The notes below the pieces were generated by a model. It had not been told where the DNA came from, ran no database searches, and was given only the letters and a program-made list of their open reading frames with translations. From a virus (Duplodnaviria > Caudoviricetes), in IMG/VR virus record IMGVR_UViG_3300031993_000008, positions 96,001 through 160,000 of that record: 64,000 bases of DNA. One strand, given 5' to 3'. A program made the translations under genes and the position numbers. This document shows, in pieces, positions 41,905-53,400 of this stretch (position 1 is the stretch's first letter; each line of letters opens with the position of its first letter).

Positions 41905-42660
41905 TTATTTGGTTTCCTCTTCATTTTTTATTCTTTCCTGTATTATTTTGTAATAATCCTCATTGAGTTCAAACCCTATAAAGTTTCTCTTTGTCCTGAT
42001 GGCCGCCACCGCAGTCGTACCTGAACCCATACAATTATCCAATATTGTATCACCTTCATTGGAGTATGTCCTTATCAACCATTCAATGAGTTCAACCGGT
42101 TTCTGTGTAGGATGGACCTGGTCCTGTCTTCTCCACTTCTGTTGGAACTCCAATACACTGTCAGGGTATCTGAAACCTTCATTGACACTGACAACCTCCC
42201 TTCTGTTGAAACCTATATTATGATTGTTGATGTCAACCTCTGATATTTTGTGTGTCCTCTTGTATGGTTCACCCTTTATCATCTGTGGATTATAGACAGT
42301 CTTCTTACCATTCTTAGAAAAGATACTGATGTTCTCATGCTTTGATATTGGTCTGTACTTGGCGCAGAAAGCAGAACCACTCTTTGATTTCTTCCATATC
42401 AGATCATACTTATACCATTTCAGATTACTCATCCTCAACATACTGCTGAATGGTTCTGTGCCGAACAGGACTATTGCACCACCATCCTTGATGATCCTCT
42501 CATATTGTTCCCACAGTTTGTCAAAAGGTATGAGTATATCCCAGGAACAGGTGGATGTACCATAAGGAAGGTCACAGATGATACAGTCAATGGACTTGTC
42601 AGGAATATCTTTCATTCCCAACAGACAATCCTCATTATATACTTTGTTCAATTCTTTCAT
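41905..42660 (-). CDS. DNA amino-methyltransferase (beta class, DLPY)
   Basis: CDLPY, HPTQKP, LDNCMGSGTT; likely ATG at 42660. Confidence 0.92.
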   Translation of the reverse strand: MKELNKVYNEDCLLGMKDIPDKSIDCIICDLPYGTSTCSWDILIPFDKLWEQYERIIKDGGAIVLFGTEPFSSMLRMSNLKWYKYDLIWKKSKSGSAFCAKYRPISKHENISIFSKNGKKTVYNPQMIKGEPYKRTHKISEVDINNHNIGFNRREVVSVNEGFRYPDSVLEFQQKWRRQDQVHPTQKPVELIEWLIRTYSNEGDTILDNCMGSGTTAVAAIRTKRNFIGFELNEDYYKIIQERIKNEEETK

Positions 42661-43372
42661 TGATAATCTTATAGTATTCCTCATCAGTCTCAAAACCGAT
42701 GAACTTCCTTCCTGTGTTCAGACAGGCAACAGCAGTTGTACCTGAACCCATACAATTATCAAGTACCACATCACCTTCATTGGTGAATGTCTTGACCAAC
42801 TCTTCCAACAGTTTCAATGGTTTCTGTGTAGGATGAAGGTTTGATGTGAGTATATCCCTTTGGAACTTCCACACCTGGGTTGGGTATCTCTTACCTGTAT
42901 CAACATACTCTATAGGTTTCTTCATATTGTTGTCAGTCAGTTTCCCAAGTTTCCCATCCTTGACCTTGTTTGTTCTCGGAGGACCGTCATAAGTCAGCAT
43001 CTGGGGATTATATGTACACTGTTTCTTATAGAACACAGAGATGGTCTCCACATCCTTACCAACCCTTCTCTTCACCTGTTGTATGTTGGTGAGTCTTTCC
43101 TTCTGCCAGTATATGTCATACTTGTAGTCCTTCAGGTTACTCAATCTCACAAGCGAACTGAATGGTTCCTGACCAAACAACAGGATGGCACCATTATCCT
43201 TGATTATCCTGTCATACTGTTCCCATAACTTATCAAATGGGATTATAACATCCCAGAAACAGGAAGTTGAACCATAAGGAAGGTCACAGATGATACAGTC
43301 AATGGATTTGTCAGGGATTTCCTTCATTCCTTCAAGACAGTCCATATTATATACCTTATTGAGTTCCATCAA
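42635..43372 (-). CDS. DNA amino-methyltransferase (beta class, DLPY)
   Basis: CDLPY, HPTQKP, LDNCMGSGTT. Confidence 0.92.
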   Translation of the reverse strand: MMELNKVYNMDCLEGMKEIPDKSIDCIICDLPYGSTSCFWDVIIPFDKLWEQYDRIIKDNGAILLFGQEPFSSLVRLSNLKDYKYDIYWQKERLTNIQQVKRRVGKDVETISVFYKKQCTYNPQMLTYDGPPRTNKVKDGKLGKLTDNNMKKPIEYVDTGKRYPTQVWKFQRDILTSNLHPTQKPLKLLEELVKTFTNEGDVVLDNCMGSGTTAVACLNTGRKFIGFETDEEYYKIINERIEQSI

Positions 43373-44130
43373 AACAATTTGGAATTATATTCTGTTTTCT
43401 CTATCTCCAGTCTCTCTGTTGCCAGCTTGTAGTATTCTTCACTGAGTTCAAACCCTATATACTTCCTGTTTTCCCACAGTGCAGCAACAGCGGTGGTACC
43501 ACTTCCCATAAATGGGTCAAGTACAACATCTCCCTCATAGGTAAACAACCTTATACATCTTTTGGGAAGTTCAATAGGAAATGCCGCCGGGTGACCAACC
43601 TTACTCAATCTCTCACCATTGAACTCCCAGAGTCCATTACTCCAATCTATGAACTCCTTCCTTTCTATTGTGGCAACACCTGTATGTGTCAGTTTCATTG
43701 TTTTCCTGAACACAAGTATATACTCAAAACATCTTGGGAATGATGGAGATGACGGATTCATAAAACTTCCCCAGGCAGTCCTGTTACTTGAATTGTTCTT
43801 ATTCCATACAATGATGGTGAGGACATGGAAACCAATCTCCCTGGCAATCTGTATGAAATCTGAATGTGTGGGTATGGATCCATTCTTACCATCACCTATG
43901 TTTATACACATCCTTCCATCTTCTGCCAGGACTCTGTATGATTCCTGGAATATTTCCCTTATCCATTTCAGGTAATCATCATAAGGTTTGTTGTCATCAT
44001 ACTCATCATATTCAAGTCCTACATTATAAGGAGGAGATGTGATGATACAATTGACAACACCATCCGGAAGATTCTTCATACCTTCCAGACAATCCATATT
44101 ATAAATCTTATTAAAGTCCATAATACTCAT
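43369..44130 (-). CDS. DNA amino-methyltransferase (beta class, SPPY; N4C/N6A)
   Basis: TSPPYN, HPAAFP, LDPFMGSGTT. Confidence 0.92.
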   Translation of the reverse strand: MSIMDFNKIYNMDCLEGMKNLPDGVVNCIITSPPYNVGLEYDEYDDNKPYDDYLKWIREIFQESYRVLAEDGRMCINIGDGKNGSIPTHSDFIQIAREIGFHVLTIIVWNKNNSSNRTAWGSFMNPSSPSFPRCFEYILVFRKTMKLTHTGVATIERKEFIDWSNGLWEFNGERLSKVGHPAAFPIELPKRCIRLFTYEGDVVLDPFMGSGTTAVAALWENRKYIGFELSEEYYKLATERLEIEKTEYNSKLF

Positions 44131-44371
44131 CCTTACTCATCCAACCTTCCGGTTTAACAGTACTGATATGTACATAGTTTCCACATTCATGTGCATAGAG
44201 GTTTACACAGTTAAACAATTCATCTTTGTCAACTTCCTGTTCCACATAGTACAATGGGTTATGTTCATCACAAAGGTCACAGGCCTTTGCCCTACAAGTA
44301 AATTTTACATCTCCATCACCAAGACCACACTGATAATGGAGAATATAAATCTTAATCTTCTTATTGCTCAT
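44111..44371 (-). CDS. Small Cys-rich hypothetical protein
   Basis: 86 aa, CxxxCxxC; start 5 nt from a class II promoter. Confidence 0.6.
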   Translation of the reverse strand: MSNKKIKIYILHYQCGLGDGDVKFTCRAKACDLCDEHNPLYYVEQEVDKDELFNCVNLYAHECGNYVHISTVKPEGWMSKDEYYGL

Positions 44372-44415
44372 ACAATAAAAATAACAAAAGGTGAGTCATT
44401 CAACTCACCTTTCTT

Positions 44416-44898
44416 TTATAGTTTTTCACTTATGTCCTCACCAGTCTTCAAGTCAATTATCCTCTGATTGGTTGAACCTCTGAATGCCAGGGAAGTGTCC
44501 CTGTTGGAATGTTCATACAGACCGTCAACAAGAATGTCAGAGAGTTTCAGGATTTCTGGGAAGTGTTTCAGGCAATAGTCATAAGTATAACCTGTGTAGA
44601 TCCATACATCCTTTGTGTCACCAAACCTCTCCCTGAAATTCTGAAGGAGTTCCAACACACCATCAGGACTGTCAAGGGGATCACCACCACTCAATGTCAA
44701 TCCCTTGATGTAAGGTTTATCCATTTCATTGAACAACACTTCCTCAACCTTCTTGTCATATTCCTTACCTGAATTGAAACTCCAGGTCTTCCTGTTATGA
44801 CAGTTTCTGCAATGGTGGGTACACCCTCCAACCCAGAGGGTGGTTCTGCAACCCAATCCATTATTTACATCTGATGTCGTAATACTTATGTACTTCAT
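44416..44898 (-). CDS. nrdG: Anaerobic RNR activating enzyme (radical SAM)
   Basis: GCTHHCRNCHN, GLTLSGGDPL, FRGSTNQRII. Confidence 0.95.
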   Translation of the reverse strand: MKYISITTSDVNNGLGCRTTLWVGGCTHHCRNCHNRKTWSFNSGKEYDKKVEEVLFNEMDKPYIKGLTLSGGDPLDSPDGVLELLQNFRERFGDTKDVWIYTGYTYDYCLKHFPEILKLSDILVDGLYEHSNRDTSLAFRGSTNQRIIDLKTGEDISEKL

Positions 44899-44900
44899 AA

Positions 44901-47102
44901 TTAAATCTTCACTTCCTTGTTGTGTTTAACTCTGTCTTCTGTCTCTTTCTGCTTACCAAAATTGAAAGCAGTCTTATAATCGCCTGTAAGGTAGCCTGTC
45001 ACGCGGCGGAGTCTCTGAATCTTTGTACTTCCACACTGTGGGCAGGTATCACCAAGTTCACCCTGGTAACCACACTCTGTGCAGAGGTCATTAGGTGTAT
45101 TGACTGCAAAGTAAGGAATATCTTTGTCCATTGCATAGTTGACAATGGTTTCAAGGGCTTCTGTATTGTGAAGTACTGTTGAAGGAAGTTCAACATAAGT
45201 AATACAACCGGCAGAACTGTAACAAGTGAGTTGTGATTCAATATCAATCTTCTCAAATGGAGTAACCTTCTCCCAAACAGGAACATGCATTGAGTTGGTG
45301 AAGTATTCTCTGTCAGATACATTCTCAATCACACCATACTTGTCACGGAATTTCTTGAGTGCTGTGTAGCAAAGGTTCTCTGCTGGTGTGTAGTAAACAC
45401 CAAAGTTCAGACTGTACTCCTTTTTATATTCAGCACATCTGTCCTTGAAGAGTTGTTCAATTCTCTTTGCAAGTGCCATTCCCTCATCTGTGAGATGGTT
45501 CTTACCGATAAGGAGTTGAAGTGTCTCCGCAAGACCAAGCTGACCGATAACTATCGTACCATGCTTTAATGCTGACCTGATACCTTCCTCAGGAACATAT
45601 CCTGCCATTGTGCCATTGGTGTACATAAAGTCTGCTGACTTTGGTGACTGTGAGCAGATCCACTCGAATCTCTCGATAAGCATATCCTTTGCCTCACCTA
45701 TCTTCTTGTCAAGGAGTTTCATAAACTTCTCAACATCCCTGTCTGCTTCCATTGCAAGTGTAGGCATAATGATTGTAACAGGACATATGTTACCTCTACC
45801 ATCCTTCAACTGACCAAGACCATTCACATCCCAACCATTTGCTGTTCTACAACCCATTGTACTGAAATAAGTCCTGGGGTCATTGATGTCATAACCGGCA
45901 TTACCTGACCAGTCAACATTTGCATAATTAGGATAAAGTCTCTTTGCTGTTGACTTGAGGGCCAACTGATAAAGGTCATAGTTTGGTGTACCTGGTTTGT
46001 CATTCACACCTTTCATATACTGGAATATACCACAAGGGAAGATAGGTGTCTTATGGAACTTACCGAGACCGGCAATTGAAACCTCAAGGATTTTCTGTGT
46101 AACCATCCTTCCTTCTGGTGATGTACAGGTACCGTAGTTGATTGATGTGAAAGGCAACTGGTTACCTGACCTTGACTGAAGTGTATTCAGGTTATGATAC
46201 ATTCCTTCAACTGCCTGATAGGTTTCAGCCTCTGTCTGACCATAAGCATAATTGTAAATCTTTTGTAACTTATTTTTGAATTCCTCATTACCAAAACAGA
46301 GTTCACCAAACTCCTTTTCAAGTTCCTGGGTTTTGATTTCAGCATCATCCTTTGACATACCCTCAACAAACCTGTACCAACCTTTGACATGTTTCCTGAA
46401 TGATTTCTTCACATAAGGAACCATTGTCCAGTCAAGGTGTGTTGCTGATACACCACCAAACTGCTGAAGTGACTGCAACTGGAATATCACTGCAACCAGC
46501 TGCATCGCTGTATTGATTGAGTTGGCGGGACGGACATCAGTCTGCCTTGTATTGAATCCCTTTGCAAGAAGGTCATCAAAAGGTATTGAGAGACAGTTGT
46601 GCATACCTGCTGCATATGAATCTAAATCATGTATATATATTTCATTATTAAGATGATTGCTCTTTGACTTCTTTGACATACAGTATTTCAATGCATAGTC
46701 CTTTGTAACAACTCTGGTAACCTCACCCATTCTTCCGCCGAATGAATACTCATCTACATTGGCATTCTGGTTTTCTACATTCTTTGCGAGGAGTTTCTTT
46801 TCCACATCCTTTGTGAGCTGATTCTTTTCCTCTCTCATTGCTTTGTGTTCTGCCCTGTAAATGATGAAGTTCTTAGCAACACATGGGTAATACTTCATAA
46901 GGTACTTCTCAATCTTGTCCTGAATGTCTTCAACATTGATTGATTCTTCCCCATACTTGTCTACCCATTCCTTGATGAAGTCATATACCTCAACAGGAGT
47001 CTCCATCTCCTTTGAGGCAAATGCCTTGTCAAGTACATTGTAGATCTTCTCAATACGGAAGTGGGCACTGGTGCCATCTCTTTTTATTACCGTTTTGATC
47101 AT
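44901..47102 (-). CDS. nrdD: Class III anaerobic ribonucleoside-triphosphate reductase
   Basis: ATP cone IKRDG, YIHDLD, MGCRT, Zn CxxC/CxxC, glycyl radical RRVTGY. Confidence 0.96.
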   Translation of the reverse strand: MIKTVIKRDGTSAHFRIEKIYNVLDKAFASKEMETPVEVYDFIKEWVDKYGEESINVEDIQDKIEKYLMKYYPCVAKNFIIYRAEHKAMREEKNQLTKDVEKKLLAKNVENQNANVDEYSFGGRMGEVTRVVTKDYALKYCMSKKSKSNHLNNEIYIHDLDSYAAGMHNCLSIPFDDLLAKGFNTRQTDVRPANSINTAMQLVAVIFQLQSLQQFGGVSATHLDWTMVPYVKKSFRKHVKGWYRFVEGMSKDDAEIKTQELEKEFGELCFGNEEFKNKLQKIYNYAYGQTEAETYQAVEGMYHNLNTLQSRSGNQLPFTSINYGTCTSPEGRMVTQKILEVSIAGLGKFHKTPIFPCGIFQYMKGVNDKPGTPNYDLYQLALKSTAKRLYPNYANVDWSGNAGYDINDPRTYFSTMGCRTANGWDVNGLGQLKDGRGNICPVTIIMPTLAMEADRDVEKFMKLLDKKIGEAKDMLIERFEWICSQSPKSADFMYTNGTMAGYVPEEGIRSALKHGTIVIGQLGLAETLQLLIGKNHLTDEGMALAKRIEQLFKDRCAEYKKEYSLNFGVYYTPAENLCYTALKKFRDKYGVIENVSDREYFTNSMHVPVWEKVTPFEKIDIESQLTCYSSAGCITYVELPSTVLHNTEALETIVNYAMDKDIPYFAVNTPNDLCTECGYQGELGDTCPQCGSTKIQRLRRVTGYLTGDYKTAFNFGKQKETEDRVKHNKEVKI

Positions 47103-47123
47103 ACAAAAATTGTTTATTATATA

Positions 47124-47795
47124 TTATATTGTTTCACCACAGTTAAGTTGGTTAACTATGGTGTTTGTGTTCTCATCAATAGTGAAGTAGTTGTGATAAA
47201 CAGCAACTGTACCATTATATACATTCTCTCTTTCTTCCAGGAATCTCACACTCTCGACAGTCTTGTATTCATAATTGTCTGATGATGTACATACCTTGGT
47301 CAGTTTAATATTATAGAGATCTGCCTCATATCCTTCCCTGGTGCAGACCTCTCTCATATCCCAGATACACTCAAACTCCTCTCCTGATACCTCACATCTC
47401 TTTATGACAGTACCTTTCTTTGTTCCTGTGTATTCTGTAAACTTCCTGTCCTTCTCGTCAATATCAAGTGGAAGAACAGAATTATTCTTAATTGTCACAA
47501 TTTTATATCCCTCATATAAATCACCGGCATACACATAACCTTCATCTGTAAGGAACATATGGTTCAGTGTCGATTTCAATACTGTCCCGTCAGTCAATGT
47601 AATTTCAATGATTCCTATATTGTATCCCGACAACCTGGGATGGAACATTTTTGATACCTTTATATTACCATCGTCGTCAAGGCAATATACATTCACATCA
47701 TCACCGGAATCCGCCAGGTCCTTGAAGGATTTGGGTCCTTCTACTGTCCACACTTTGGTATCTCCTGTTACACAAGGATTTAGATTTTTCATCAT
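47124..47795 (-). CDS. Stand-alone mini-intein (Hint domain, 47142-47774) with 7-aa and 5-aa RNR-like exteins
   Basis: MMKNLNP|CVTGDT (block A), TLNHMF (block B), VYNGTV..HNYF (block F), QLN|CGETI (block G). Confidence 0.85.
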   Translation of the reverse strand: MMKNLNPCVTGDTKVWTVEGPKSFKDLADSGDDVNVYCLDDDGNIKVSKMFHPRLSGYNIGIIEITLTDGTVLKSTLNHMFLTDEGYVYAGDLYEGYKIVTIKNNSVLPLDIDEKDRKFTEYTGTKKGTVIKRCEVSGEEFECIWDMREVCTREGYEADLYNIKLTKVCTSSDNYEYKTVESVRFLEERENVYNGTVAVYHNYFTIDENTNTIVNQLNCGETI

Positions 47796-47817
47796 AAAAA
47801 ATTGATTAAAATTAAAC

Positions 47818-48348
47818 TTAAATTTCTGATTTCGGCGATAAATTATTTATGTATTCATCGACCGATTTTTCACTCTCCAACCTTAAGTTCCAGATACTGA
47901 AATCCTTAAAGTCTTTTGCATCATTTTTGAGGCGGACTTCATTGTCATCGCCCACCTTGTTTGTGTATCTATTGTTCAGTCTCTGTCTCCTTACTTCCTC
48001 TGGAATGTCAAGATAAATGATTGTAAATCTGTCTCTTAACTCTGGGAACTGTTCAAACACATCCCTCACATTAGCTGGTGAGAGGATTGCCACATCGGAG
48101 TTGATGAGTTCATCATAAGAGACTCCATACCAACCGATCCTATAGAAGTTTACTGATATGAAACTGCCTTTATTTTCCATATCCTTAAATACAGGTTCAG
48201 AGACAAAATGATACTCATCTCCAGTCTCATTTTCTCTCCTCTCCCTGGTGGTATATTGCTTCATTGGATGATAGCCTTTTTCCTCCATTTTCTTGATGAG
48301 CCAGTCTTTTCCGGAAGCACCTGGACCCACAATGATATATTTACTCAT
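47818..48348 (-). CDS. gmk: Guanylate kinase-like nucleotide kinase
   Basis: GPGASGKD, YTTRERRENE.GDEYHFV, WYG. Confidence 0.8.
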   Translation of the reverse strand: MSKYIIVGPGASGKDWLIKKMEEKGYHPMKQYTTRERRENETGDEYHFVSEPVFKDMENKGSFISVNFYRIGWYGVSYDELINSDVAILSPANVRDVFEQFPELRDRFTIIYLDIPEEVRRQRLNNRYTNKVGDDNEVRLKNDAKDFKDFSIWNLRLESEKSVDEYINNLSPKSEI

Positions 48349-48505
48349 TCAAATACTTTTTAAAGTTCTCAATGAGGTCACCTTTGAGGTTGTTGTTCCA
48401 TTCATCCTGTGACATTGGTATCTGTTTGACACTGTCACCAGCAAGATGGATCTCAGCAACCTCCTTACCTACATTATATGTTACTCTGTAAATCTCTCCT
48501 TTCAT
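48341..48505 (-). CDS. Small hypothetical protein
   Basis: ATG 48505 just after a class II promoter; overlaps the gmk start. Confidence 0.5.
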   Translation of the reverse strand: MKGEIYRVTYNVGKEVAEIHLAGDSVKQIPMSQDEWNNNLKGDLIENFKKYLNE

Positions 48506-48644
48506 ATAAGAAAGATAACAAAAAAGGAGATGATTTCTCATCTCCATTGTAAATAAAATATAATGTATTATATCTTAAAGATTTATCTCATAAAATCAAT
48601 TGTTATCAAATGGCCCGTTTGTAATATTATAAGAATATAAAGAT

Positions 48645-48824
48645 TTAAAATCCGAGATAGACAAACAGAAAATAACAGATGAAATAAAAGACAAAGAATA
48701 TAAGAAGAAACCTAATACCTGTATACAACAGACTGATTATGAAAGATATAAGTTTCCATATGACAGGTACAAGAATGATTATACCTACTATGATAAATGC
48801 TGTTATAATGATTGTTGATAACAT
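48645..48824 (-). CDS. 59-aa two-TM membrane protein (missing from the ORF track)
   Basis: MLSTIIITAFIIVGIIILVPVIWKLISFIISLLYTGIRFLLIFFVFYFICYFLFVYLGF; host-type promoter directly upstream. Confidence 0.6.
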   Translation of the reverse strand: MLSTIIITAFIIVGIIILVPVIWKLISFIISLLYTGIRFLLIFFVFYFICYFLFVYLGF

Positions 48825-48846
48825 ATGTTTTGTTTTATTTCCAATA

Positions 48847-48878
48847 CAAATATAATGGATTTATTTGATATTTCCAAA
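48847..48878 (-). promoter_or_regulatory. Host-type Bacteroidetes promoter (early)
   Basis: TTTG-N20-TATATTTG. Confidence 0.75.
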
Positions 48879-48923
48879 TTTATTTTACTTCATAAATAAC
48901 TTATAGTATTTTTTAATCATTTT

Positions 48924-51239
48924 ATGGGAGAACTTATAAACATCAAACATTATGATGAATATGTTAATATTCTGAATGAGGACCTGATTCATGGTGAACA
49001 GTCTGCACTGAACAGGGCATTTATGAATGGTGGTCCTATTACATTTGCAGATGGTTCAAGCGTCACTCCTAAAGAGATTGTCAATGCTGTGAACAATGCA
49101 TTGATGTGGCTCAATTCGGAATTTTCAAGAACATTCACCTTTGCAAAGAATACATTGAATATCATATATCTTCCTCACAGTAATAAAATCAAGACAATGG
49201 CTGTTGATGAACATATGAACCTTTATATGAATGTGGGTTACATATATCATAAACTGAAGATGGATAAGGAACTTATCGCAGCCGTAATTATGCATGAGGT
49301 ATTCCATGCCCTGTTTGATCATATCAACAGAGGCAAGAACTGGTTGATGGCAAAAGGAAAGTCAACTACACCCAGTACCTGGCATGATACCAACCTTGCT
49401 GCTGATGTGGAGGTTAACAGGACATTGGTAAGGATAGGTCTTATTGAAGAGGAAAGACTTGTTAAAGAAATAAAAGGTATGTACCTCAAGAAGAGTGACG
49501 GCAGTAGGGATATTGTTCCTATGGAGGTTATTCTTGATGATGAGGAATATATGAAGAAATTGAGGTCAATGTGTCCTCCTGACAGTGAAATGGATATGCC
49601 TGGTAGTAACAAAACAATTGAAACTACAGAAGAATGGGATAATGGATATAAGGATGCATGGAATAAGGTTGCAGGACTTATCAAGAAATATGGACATAAG
49701 GGTGCCTGGCAGAAACTTATGGATGCAGGAATTGTCAATGCTGTAGGTGAAATATACACAAAGAATAACATAGAGGACATTATGGCAATTGAATTCCTCA
49801 CTGTAAAATCATATGAGGATTATATCAATGAAGACTTGAATGTTCCAAATTCAGATGCAGGAAAGACTTATGACAGTGGATTCATGACTGCTTTCAAAGA
49901 CCTTATGAAGAAACTTTATGATAGTGTCAATCCTTCAGAAGGAGGAAGTATGGATGTTCCTGATAATGGTGGTTCTGGTCCTAAATATAAATCAGGTCTC
50001 AAGAATGAGGATCTTGATGAGATTGAATTTCCTAAACAGAAAAGTAAAGACAAGAAGAAAGAGGATGATGATTCCCTCCCTTCAAACATAAAACAGGGAA
50101 GTGATGATGAAGGTGACGGTAATGATTCCGGAGATGAAATGAGAGGAGGAAAATCTGCCGGTGCCGGAAATGATGGAAAGGATGATGATGAACTGACAGA
50201 TGATGACATCAATAAACTTGCAGATGACATCAACAAGAGAACCAATGGTGGAAAGGATAAAATTTCAACACAGCAGGATATTGAATACAGAGGTGTTGGA
50301 GGTACAGGTTCATTCCAGGAAAAGGGTTTGTCTGATGATGATCTGAAAGAAGCAGGATACAGTGATGAAGACCTTGCTGAAATCAATAAGGTGAGAAAGT
50401 CAAACGAGACCAACAATTCAAAGGCCAATATCCAGAAACAGATGGAAAGGATGAAGAGAGATCTCCCAAAGGGTGATATAATAAGGAGAACTCTTGATGC
50501 AATAGAAATAGAGTCCAACAAGTATAAGAATTTGTGGAAAGACATGCTTGAGGACTTTATGTCAAAGAAGACCAGAAGGGCGGGTAGGGATTTGCCTAAT
50601 GGAAAGAATGACTGGATCAACAAAAAGAACATAGCAAGAGGTGAATATGGAATCCACCGTAAGAATACATCCCAGGATCCCCAGGATGTGAATGTCTATG
50701 TGGATGTATCTGGTTCTATGGATTTGGAACTTCTTGAAATAATAAGCAAGTCTCTTGTGGTGTTCACACAGCAATGGGAGTATTCAGGTCTGAATATCTG
50801 TCCTTGGGCATCAAGGAGTAACGGTGTTCATAAGGTTGATGACTTCTATAGTAAGAGTGAAGGAGAGATAACAAAACAGATTCTTGAGATAATATCAAAA
50901 GGTGAGAGTCAGTGTGGCGGAGGAACTGATGCATCAGCAGTCATAGCTGCAATGCTTGATGCAATAGAAGAGTCATTGGGTGATGAAAACAAGGATGAAA
51001 AGGATGATGTCCATGTTGTCATTACTGACGGTTATTTTGACTATCAGGGTGTTGAGGACAGGATTTCCAGGTCTATTATGAGTTCAATCAAGAGAAATGA
51101 TGTTGCTGCCAAAGCACCGGAGAATACATTCTGGATGATATATGATGCACCGGAATCCCTTAAGGATAGTTGGAAGAAGGAAATCAAGAAGGGAAGACTT
51201 ATTTTCATCAACTCTGAGGTTGTAAAGAATAATGGATAA
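48924..51239 (+). CDS. DUF2201-like metallopeptidase fused to vWA domain
   Basis: TMAVD, HEVFH, NLAADVEVN; acidic linker; VDVSGSM, GGTD, ITDGY MIDAS. Confidence 0.85.
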   Translation: MGELINIKHYDEYVNILNEDLIHGEQSALNRAFMNGGPITFADGSSVTPKEIVNAVNNALMWLNSEFSRTFTFAKNTLNIIYLPHSNKIKTMAVDEHMNLYMNVGYIYHKLKMDKELIAAVIMHEVFHALFDHINRGKNWLMAKGKSTTPSTWHDTNLAADVEVNRTLVRIGLIEEERLVKEIKGMYLKKSDGSRDIVPMEVILDDEEYMKKLRSMCPPDSEMDMPGSNKTIETTEEWDNGYKDAWNKVAGLIKKYGHKGAWQKLMDAGIVNAVGEIYTKNNIEDIMAIEFLTVKSYEDYINEDLNVPNSDAGKTYDSGFMTAFKDLMKKLYDSVNPSEGGSMDVPDNGGSGPKYKSGLKNEDLDEIEFPKQKSKDKKKEDDDSLPSNIKQGSDDEGDGNDSGDEMRGGKSAGAGNDGKDDDELTDDDINKLADDINKRTNGGKDKISTQQDIEYRGVGGTGSFQEKGLSDDDLKEAGYSDEDLAEINKVRKSNETNNSKANIQKQMERMKRDLPKGDIIRRTLDAIEIESNKYKNLWKDMLEDFMSKKTRRAGRDLPNGKNDWINKKNIARGEYGIHRKNTSQDPQDVNVYVDVSGSMDLELLEIISKSLVVFTQQWEYSGLNICPWASRSNGVHKVDDFYSKSEGEITKQILEIISKGESQCGGGTDASAVIAAMLDAIEESLGDENKDEKDDVHVVITDGYFDYQGVEDRISRSIMSSIKRNDVAAKAPENTFWMIYDAPESLKDSWKKEIKKGRLIFINSEVVKNNG

Positions 51240-51273
51240 ACAACATAAATAATTATATATTAAAGTTTTGAGT

Positions 51274-53400
51274 ATGAAAAATTTAATGAGTAGAAATGAA
51301 TATCTTCAGAACACTGTTGAAGAGGGTTTCATTAAGGATACTTTTAAGAAGGGATGGGAAAAAATCAAGTCTCTTTTCAAGATTGGTATGATGAAGGTAA
51401 AGAACTTCATAGCGATCTTTGACAATGAGGGCAATGTTTTTCCTGTTGTTTCCCCACAGGCCACAATTGATCTTATCTCACATATGGATTTTGTGGATGC
51501 TTTTTCACCTGCCGCACTCAACAACACTATCATTTCAGCAGGAGGTATAGGTTGTGAAATGAGGGCACCTCTCATCAAGGATGATGAAACTTATGATGAT
51601 GAGAGTTGGAATGGGGATGATGAATACAAGAACAGTAATGAGTACAAGAACTTCCTTTCAATTCCTTCAATCATAAAGGAACATTATGACTGTACAGATG
51701 AGGAAGCACATGAAATCTTTGAGTATATGATGATTGGTGAGAGTTGGGATGGTATCACCAAGAACAGGGTTAAATATGTTGACAGGAATGAACTGTCAGG
51801 TCTTGCTGAAATCAATTATGATCAGTTTGAGGAAATACTTAATGAGATGGTTGAGGAGAGATCAAAGGAAGGAGGTAAGACAAGAATCACATCAACAGGC
51901 AGGTCAATTGAACCATCAAGAAACCTTCTGATATTCGGTGCCCCTGGTATAGGTAAGTCAACAATTCCTAACACTGTAATAAAGAAGTATAATGAGAATG
52001 TTGGTGATGACCCATCAAAACAGATTACACTCATATCAATTAACTGTGCCCTTCTTGAGGAGGGAGGATTTATGATGCCTACAATGCCTAAAGAGACAGA
52101 CATTATGAAATCAATCGAAAGATTCTCAAAGACCTTCCCACAGGCAAATGAATTCCTTTCAGGACTTGATGATGAAGAGAATGAAAAGATTGCACAGACC
52201 ATTTCTGCAAGTGCACAGTTCAAGTCAACAGATGCACCAAAGTCTTGGCTTCCTTCATACAAACCTACCGGTGACAGAAACATTGATGTACTTCTTGATG
52301 CATATGCCAATGGTGGTGTATATGAGGATGAAGACGGATTCACCTGTAAGACAGGTAGTGGTGGTATCATCCTCTTTGATGAGTTCCTGAGGGCAGACCC
52401 AGGTGTGTTCAGTCAGCTTATGAACTTCTTCCTTGAGAGAAAACTCTATGACTGGAAACTCGGTTCAAAATGGACAGTGATTGCATGTTCAAACAGACCT
52501 TGTGATGATGGTCAGGTAGAAAGGGTATGGAAGGATTGGAATGACTCTCCTGCATCAAAAGACCGTATGGAAAGGATGTTCCAGTTGGTTCCAGATCCAG
52601 ACCAGTGGAAAGCATGGATTAGGACAAAGCATGTTGATGAACTTCTCCTTGATTTCATATTTGAGAAGGACTCAATGGTGGGAGATGAATATCCAAGATG
52701 GCACAGTATGGTCAGAAAGGGTGCCGGTGATTCAAAACAGGTAGAACCTATCAACCCACGTAGATGGGAGTCAGCATTCAAGAGACTCATAAAGTTTGAA
52801 GAGAAACATGATTATGAAGATATTTCACAGATGACTGATGAGGAAATAGCAAATTGTCTTAAAGGTTTGTTTGACACTGACTTTGTTGCTGAAATAACAA
52901 GCTGGTTGAGAGATCATATGGATAAGATTGACCTTGATGGAATAATGGAGAATCCTGAATCAGTATATCTTCCAAAGAAGTTTGTGAATGACCCTGCAAA
53001 GGCACTCATACTTATCCAAAACCTTCTCAAGGACTTTGAAGGAAGATATAAGGACAATCCTGGTGACTGTTCAGATGATCAGCTTGCAAACATCATCACC
53101 TGGTTGGGAATCAATTATAAGGAGGATATGGTTGCTGTCCAGAACTTTATGGAGGAAATCATCAAGAATATTTTCAAGAATAATTCAGAGTACAAGATTA
53201 ACAACTACATAAAGACAATGCAGACACTCTTCGCCGCATATCCTGAAAGGGATATTGAAGAGGTTGTCAATAAGGAAATTGAAAGAGATGGTTGGGAAGA
53301 GAACAGTATGGAAATCATCAAGGACCTGATGAACAAATACTTCCCCTGGAGAATTGATGGAGACAAAATCAAGTTCTTTGATGACCTTTCAGTTGAATAA
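51274..53400 (+). CDS. MoxR-like AAA+ ATPase
   Basis: GAPGIGKS, ILFDEFLR, ACSNRP, NPRRWE; partner of the vWA gene. Confidence 0.85.
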   Translation: MKNLMSRNEYLQNTVEEGFIKDTFKKGWEKIKSLFKIGMMKVKNFIAIFDNEGNVFPVVSPQATIDLISHMDFVDAFSPAALNNTIISAGGIGCEMRAPLIKDDETYDDESWNGDDEYKNSNEYKNFLSIPSIIKEHYDCTDEEAHEIFEYMMIGESWDGITKNRVKYVDRNELSGLAEINYDQFEEILNEMVEERSKEGGKTRITSTGRSIEPSRNLLIFGAPGIGKSTIPNTVIKKYNENVGDDPSKQITLISINCALLEEGGFMMPTMPKETDIMKSIERFSKTFPQANEFLSGLDDEENEKIAQTISASAQFKSTDAPKSWLPSYKPTGDRNIDVLLDAYANGGVYEDEDGFTCKTGSGGIILFDEFLRADPGVFSQLMNFFLERKLYDWKLGSKWTVIACSNRPCDDGQVERVWKDWNDSPASKDRMERMFQLVPDPDQWKAWIRTKHVDELLLDFIFEKDSMVGDEYPRWHSMVRKGAGDSKQVEPINPRRWESAFKRLIKFEEKHDYEDISQMTDEEIANCLKGLFDTDFVAEITSWLRDHMDKIDLDGIMENPESVYLPKKFVNDPAKALILIQNLLKDFEGRYKDNPGDCSDDQLANIITWLGINYKEDMVAVQNFMEEIIKNIFKNNSEYKINNYIKTMQTLFAAYPERDIEEVVNKEIERDGWEENSMEIIKDLMNKYFPWRIDGDKIKFFDDLSVE

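Follow-up and report, generated by a model that had tools for sequence, protein, structure and literature searches.

Between gmk and nrdD of a large virus we found a free-standing gene for a complete class 1 mini-intein. With a probability of about 0.9, it descends from the HNH inteins at the NP/CGE site of jumbo-phage class II ribonucleotide reductases (NrdJ), has shed the nuclease and both exteins, and persists under purifying selection in a gmk-nrdD-nrdG cluster. We are equally confident that it is domesticated and not a relic. The stretch analyzed (the window, 64,000 nucleotides) belongs to a 248-kb virus record estimated to be 67% complete; contigs of relatives reach 412 kb, and two of them are labeled gut metagenome.

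The ORF encodes 223 residues and ends with TAA. It is made up of a 7-residue N-extein ending in Asn-Pro, a 211-residue intein from Cys8 to Asn218, and a 5-residue C-extein beginning with Cys-Gly-Glu (Table 1). The protein scores 37 bits with Pfam Intein_splicing (cutoff, 35.8) and 38.2 bits with TIGR01445 (cutoff, 24.5). Its AlphaFold2 model is a confident Hint fold (pLDDT 89), for which Foldseek returned solved inteins with an E value of 2e-9 and a probability of 1.0. A preliminary description, made from the sequence alone, had proposed a stand-alone intein ORF of this length at this place, and the ORF, profile, and model matches confirm it. The gaps are 22 nt from gmk to the intein gene and 21 nt from the intein gene to nrdD, which is followed by nrdG. 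The window NrdD is uninterrupted, as had been stated, and carries an MGCR loop. Downstream of nrdG, three tandem ORFs (41905-44130) resemble N4/N6 DNA methyltransferases (DPPY/SPPY-type motifs; PF01555 in relatives). At 48924-53400, a DUF2201-like metallopeptidase gene lies beside an AAA ATPase gene; in relatives this pair is conserved upstream of gmk, on the opposite strand.

Table 1. Positions of the mini-intein gene, its parts, and its neighbors in the window
Feature	Position	Strand	Evidence
Free-standing mini-intein gene, 223 aa	47124..47795	-	226 same-length homolog clusters; dN/dS 0.148
N-extein, 7 codons ending in Asn-Pro (6 with the second ATG as start)	47775..47795	-	6 residues in 133/139 canonical homologs
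Intein body, Cys1 to terminal Asn, 211 aa, Hint fold	47142..47774	-	Cys1 in 164/165 homologs
Block B, T-x-x-H, residues 76-79	47559..47570	-	Conservation, 62 nonredundant homologs
Insert, residues 119-162, FCS-type zinc finger remnant plus new conserved TKKGT...W-x-E-R-E surface	47310..47441	-	Parent zf-FCS match; dN/dS
Blocks F and G, residues 189-218	47142..47231	-	dN/dS 0.054; near-invariant
C-extein, Cys-Gly-Glu plus private Thr-Ile and stop codon	47124..47141	-	Sequence, homolog comparison
gmk-like guanylate kinase gene, upstream neighbor	47818..48348	-	Profile match; adjacency in relatives
nrdD, class III anaerobic ribonucleotide reductase, downstream neighbor	44901..47102	-	Profile match
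nrdG activase	44416..44898	-	Profile match

A complete intein without a host protein

The catalytic features of a class 1 mini-intein are present, and splicing activity is predicted from residue conservation. The block A nucleophile, Cys1, is residue 8 of the ORF. Block B has T76 and H79; among 62 nonredundant homologs the histidine is invariant and residue 76 is Thr or Ser. Block F has N194 and H201, and this histidine is also invariant among homologs. The terminal Asn and the Cys nucleophile at +1 (N218-C219) are found in 138 of the 139 homologs of canonical form and are absent in 26 variants. The second cysteine near Cys1 is at +1 in 139/165 homologs and at -1 in 26/165; that these positions lie near Cys1 is taken from known intein geometry. 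The penultimate His, which is common but not universal in class 1 mini-inteins, is replaced by Leu. This replacement had been pointed out before and is real, but it is ancestral, since the embedded inteins of intact NrdJ genes likewise end in QLN or QKN, with Asn at F4.

What is missing is everything around the splicing domain. The intein does not interrupt a functional host protein: the exteins amount to 12 residues in total, and nrdJ was not found in four records. There is no homing endonuclease domain, as the HNH region of the 475-residue parent is lacking in the 211-residue intein. No large cargo domains flank the Hint domain, and its nearest relatives are NrdJ inteins, which together rule out a BIL or Hedgehog Hint domain. 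A fractured gene with a split intein is ruled out by the single ORF and by the fact that no extein genes were found.

The longer homologs sit as inteins in ribonucleotide reductases (RNRs), at the STNP/CGE site. For the nearest of these, the host proteins exceed the TIGR02504 cutoff for NrdJ, the source is other large or jumbo phages, and thioredoxin is adjacent. In the tree, every stand-alone copy falls into one clade (support 100/99) within the group holding the jumbo-phage NrdJ inteins; long branches meet at the base of this group, and the exact sister is unsure. Identity to the nearest embedded inteins is only about 50 to 55% in the Hint N-half. The tree and the embedded homologs bear out the origin proposed in the preliminary description, an RNR intein at NP/CGE, and specify class II NrdJ. 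The proposed loss of the host gene is also supported. Outside the intein, no nrdJ was found in the window record and three relatives (G002 and G004 are both 94% complete), and no thioredoxin gene was found in these records either. The nearest NrdJ proteins begin with M-x-x-x-L-L and mostly end in Cys-Gly or Cys-Glu before the stop. The old start and stop of nrdJ could thus have been joined to the intein junctions through a short shared sequence. No ancestral or intermediate gmk-nrdJ-nrdD locus was found among the loci examined, so that an in-place deletion is indistinguishable from the insertion of a gene trimmed beforehand.

Conservation of the family and a variant lineage

Homologs of similar length make up at least 226 clusters. 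The form M-x-x-L-N-P, intein, C-G-E is seen in 139 of 165 full-length homologs, and in 135 of these 139 the translation stop comes directly after CGE. The 5-residue tail, CGETI, noticed earlier is present, but its Thr-Ile is private to the window protein; even its own 90% cluster ends at CGE. The 12-mer put forward as the splicing product does not hold for the family, as relatives would give a 9-mer and 26 homologs have no C-extein. No homolog was found in cultured phages, and no close relative was found in bacterial genomes.

The order gmk, intein, nrdD is kept at nearly all loci for which flanking sequence is available, at protein identities down to 46%. An exception is L132, where the intein gene is upstream of gmk (L132:7001-8443; intein, small ORF, gmk, nrdD). 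In L132, the 13 nt directly after gmk match the start of the L128 intein gene exactly, possibly as the scar of an old position. Several types of nrdD follow gmk in L025, L113, L122, L128, L132, L167, and L168, only 25 to 28% identical to the window nrdD, which indicates more than one replacement of nrdD at the site. In L005, L009, L128, L129, L132, and L160, nrdD or the nrdD-nrdG gap is interrupted by GIY-YIG/NUMOD3 ORFs, probably group I introns or free homing endonucleases; the window nrdD has no such interruption. In the more distant related phages L025, L167, and L168, nrdD directly follows gmk without the intein gene, and the gene is therefore not needed for class III RNR in general.

The median dN/dS of the intein gene is 0.148 over 117 pairs, next to 0.137 for gmk, 0.108 for nrdD, and 0.083 for nrdG; these are pairwise Nei-Gojobori values from nonindependent pairs, and they are far from 1. 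Reading frames are intact down to 46% identity, and the gene has been kept through nrdD replacement and one change of gene order. With a dN/dS of 0.15, kept synteny, and invariant catalytic residues, the data favor domestication over decay, as had been suggested. A decaying remnant had been pictured as one with relatives only inside full-length RNR genes and a dN/dS near 1; the opposite was found. In one distant member, L247 (2021-2695), the loop that connects the Hint N-half to the finger contains an in-frame TGA, with an in-frame ATG six codons on; its exteins are still tiny despite the stop. A natural split form, a nonsense allele, and an assembly error are all conceivable here (a single contig with a coverage of 3.4 by name).

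The parent intein has an FCS-type zinc finger after its HNH domain (zf-FCS, E value of 0.001), to which residues 119 to 162 align; the window insert itself has no Pfam match. The zinc ligands (C-x2-C, C-x3-C/H) are complete in the parents, P0183, and P0186. Two are replaced in the clade of the window, and almost all are gone in L247, which retains TKKGT and W-x-E-R-E. The P0186 cluster (L128-L131), the most distant branch, has the full ligand set and a Cys at intein position 2 besides Cys1 and Cys+1. The insert had been called degenerate and Cys-rich. In terms of selection it is not degenerate but under strong constraint, with a dN/dS of 0.05 to 0.06, as low as that of blocks F and G and about one third of that of the Hint N-half. 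In pairs 60 to 70% identical in the Hint N-half, finger identity is 83% for stand-alone versus 43% for embedded inteins.

Embedded mini-inteins of RNRs often keep the same finger, so its retention is not special in itself, and part of it may be structural. The HNH domain is lost and the FCS-type finger kept in the RNR-embedded P0191, P0200, P0202, P0205, P0213, P0227, P0250, P0251, P0294, and P0301; Hint plus finger is a recurring architecture among such mini-inteins. We infer that the former finger is a putative binding surface. The homologs are strongly acidic (net charge of -10 to -24; pI of about 4.5), which disfavors plain DNA binding and makes a protein or nucleotide partner likelier than DNA. 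A DNA-binding repressor was marked down on the same net charge. A fold search with the insert alone gave nothing significant (a single row, YacG, an FCS-type finger, with a Z score of 2.5 and an rmsd of 6.1), and an Atlas feature search reached only 0.75.

The 26 variants have no C-extein, and their stop comes directly after the terminal Asn or Asp. Their N-exteins are longer (7 to 17 residues) and hypervariable, and in many the NP motif is also missing. All 26 have Cys at -1, where canonical members have Pro. Tree changes in the variants number 0 at Cys-1 and 6 to 10 at positions -2 to -6, and both TGT and TGC are used for Cys-1. The loss of the C-extein resembles the same 1-bp insertion in the old Cys codon in all eight variant loci read. 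The dN/dS of the variants is 0.15. Their penultimate Leu has changed to Met, Phe, Tyr, or Arg and their terminal Asn to Asp, a relaxation expected if the C-terminal chemistry is used only with a C-extein. A free tree gives two variant origins, and a single origin is not rejected (AU P value of 0.28). The swap of Cys+1 for Cys-1 thus appears to be one or two events, and we do not claim convergent origin.

Beyond the variant stop, the former Gly-Glu codons persist as noncoding sequence in L116, L118, L119, L120, L158, and L160 despite saturated synonymous divergence, and they have drifted in L159 and L161. Where they linger, a weak cis element for nrdD is possible. A DNA-level reason for the CGE codons was marked down: the Gly and Glu codons vary synonymously, and CGE was kept after relocation in L132. 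Common to the members of the family are Cys1, another cysteine at the junction, the histidines of blocks B and F, and the surface of the finger, but not the spliced peptide.

A possible thiol-pair switch and competing explanations

We tentatively propose, at somewhat less than even odds, that the protein couples a thiol-pair switch, responsive to redox state or metal, to a binding module and serves the anaerobic reductase operon. It would be a two-module accessory of the gmk-nrdD-nrdG cluster. The two thiols in the Hint active site, Cys1 and Cys+1 (Cys-1 in the variant lineage), would form a gate that responds to redox state or metal. With a disulfide or a bound metal in place the precursor would stay intact; under reducing conditions the N-S shift could proceed and the short ends be trimmed. 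Through its conserved surface, the former zinc finger would bind a putative partner, and the spliced peptide would be a by-product. Since Cys1 and a second thiol are universal and the spliced peptide is not, a thiol-pair gate is the best fit; among the roles listed in the preliminary description, a redox or metal sensor would likewise suit the comparative data best. The wider picture, a cargo-free stand-alone switch in which the Hint domain would sense redox state or metal via the rebuilt cysteine pair and signal to the oxygen-sensitive reductase via the repurposed endonuclease finger, is more doubtful.

There are precedents for such a gate. The intein of the oxygen-labile MoaA is gated by a disulfide between an extein Cys and Cys1, and zinc blocks inteins at the active site (PMC10663303). 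The DnaBi1 intein provides a further disulfide precedent (PMC6195587). The link to the oxygen-sensitive class III enzyme is drawn from the gene order and from a report that thioredoxin activates the class III RNR of E. coli (PMC4390871). The gene sits beside nrdD types only about 27% alike, which argues against a tightly coevolved NrdD interface, and the position beside nrdD may be historical. A catalytic electron donor to NrdD is unlikely, as the NrdD loops examined are MGCR, which we take to be the mark of the formate-using type. Formate use by class III RNR has been described (PMC4390871).

The main rival, which we regard as unlikely, is that the excised intein body is a constitutive binding protein (a decoy, an inhibitor, or a small-molecule sponge acting via the finger), with a junction chemistry that trims the leader and frees an N-terminal Cys without any sensing. 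A finger as constrained as the catalytic blocks and a pI of about 4.5 are consistent with this, and splicing in canonical members and N-cleavage in variants would yield the same body. However, it leaves unexplained why Cys-1 is invariant exactly where Cys+1 is lost, and no homolog has a leader cut to Met-Cys, which would reach the same end without chemistry.

Hedgehog domains and some BIL domains perform acyl transfer, and the protein might be a similar tool that passes the N-extein thioester to a target bound at the finger. Almost every member, with or without a C-extein, has retained Cys1 and block B, and the intein loop holds a conserved docking-like module. The tag, however, would be hypervariable (7 to 17 residues in variants), and Cys+1 would intercept the thioester in 139 members, which makes this tool quite unlikely. 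Trans interference with the intein-bearing NrdJ of a competing phage or host, by domain swapping and ligation of the tiny exteins, is improbable. The native NP and CGE junction residues are retained and the closest embedded inteins sit in other jumbo phages, but the identity to those inteins is low (see above), Cys-1 and the new finger surface are left unexplained, and no close relative comes from any bacterial genome.

A spliced peptide that mimics the thiyl loop of RNR and inhibits or modifies the host RNR had been suggested earlier, and we consider it very improbable. N-P and C-G-E are kept despite synonymous codon changes, even in the gene relocated upstream of gmk in L132, so selection acts on the protein sequence; the splice junction, however, needs those same residues. 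The 26 homologs without a C-extein, many of which also lack the NP motif, cannot make the peptide, which removes the mimic as a family-wide function, and the 12-mer is private to the window genome. One peptide per 220-residue protein would also be costly, and the finger constraint would stay unexplained. A recent relic or passively tolerated remnant, to which the absence of the gene in some relatives, the stop in L247, and a few truncated database entries could point, is largely refuted by the dN/dS (0.15 overall and 0.05 in two regions), the intact frames, and survival through nrdD replacement and reordering. A piece of a larger product, either one exon among scattered pieces of nrdJ or part of an NrdD fusion made by read-through (in the window genome the stop is in frame with nrdD), is refuted as a family trait, because the gap varies from about 13 to 47 nt among relatives without keeping the frame, no nrdJ pieces were found in the four records, 43000-50000 has no Rfam match, and gaps of 21 to 22 nt are too small for introns.

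The benefit of inteins to their hosts has long been debated and is hard to test, since an embedded intein must splice for the sake of the host protein. In this family selection has outlasted the host protein, so that any constraint reflects a role of the intein itself. With natural Cys+1 and Cys-1 forms, a soluble-looking size of 220 residues, and exteins of 9 residues, such a role can be tested directly. The family also offers natural mini-inteins that need little extein sequence, as well as putative N-cleavage-only variants.

Comparison with known inteins and Hint proteins

The closest known systems are the NP/CGE NrdJ inteins of other jumbo phages (P0122-P0129, for example), the probable sister group, which share the junctions, the Hint blocks, the F4 Asn, the lack of a penultimate His, and the finger. 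Unlike these, the window family has no host protein or HNH nuclease and has its own start and stop; its finger is far more constrained and short of zinc ligands, and one lineage has no C-extein. The yeast HO endonuclease, the Hedgehog autoprocessing domain, and BIL domains also keep the Hint fold outside the selfish intein setting. HO acts through its endonuclease, and Hedgehog and BIL domains process large flanking domains, whereas the window intein has neither nuclease nor cargo and the tree places its family among RNR inteins.

The Pyrococcus abyssi MoaA and Mycobacterium smegmatis DnaBi1 inteins have a second cysteine near the catalytic one and an oxygen-sensitive context, as here (PMC10663303, PMC6195587). 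Their gate controls maturation of a host enzyme; in the window family there is no host enzyme, and gating is a proposal from the comparative data. Fractured genes with split inteins also associate phage nrdJ-type inteins with small ORFs, but there two genes with exteins together restore a complete host protein in trans (PMC2677866), and no extein genes were found here.

Like the window intein, the Arth_1007 intein of Arthrobacter FB24 is of phage origin and was left with very short exteins, 66 residues in all. That intein is without catalytic residues and splicing activity and was considered a pseudogene (PMC3196547), whereas the window family keeps its catalytic residues and is under purifying selection across hundreds of sequence clusters. 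The Jug phage paper reports 26 Intein_splicing proteins and gives no detail on stand-alone ones (PMC12880540). In the literature searched, which covered few subscription journals, we found no description of a conserved, catalytically complete, cargo-free intein, and the nearest published case found appears to be Arth_1007, a dead pseudogene. Domesticated Hint proteins are already known; a free-standing, cargo-free family of NrdJ-derived inteins would be a new form of them.
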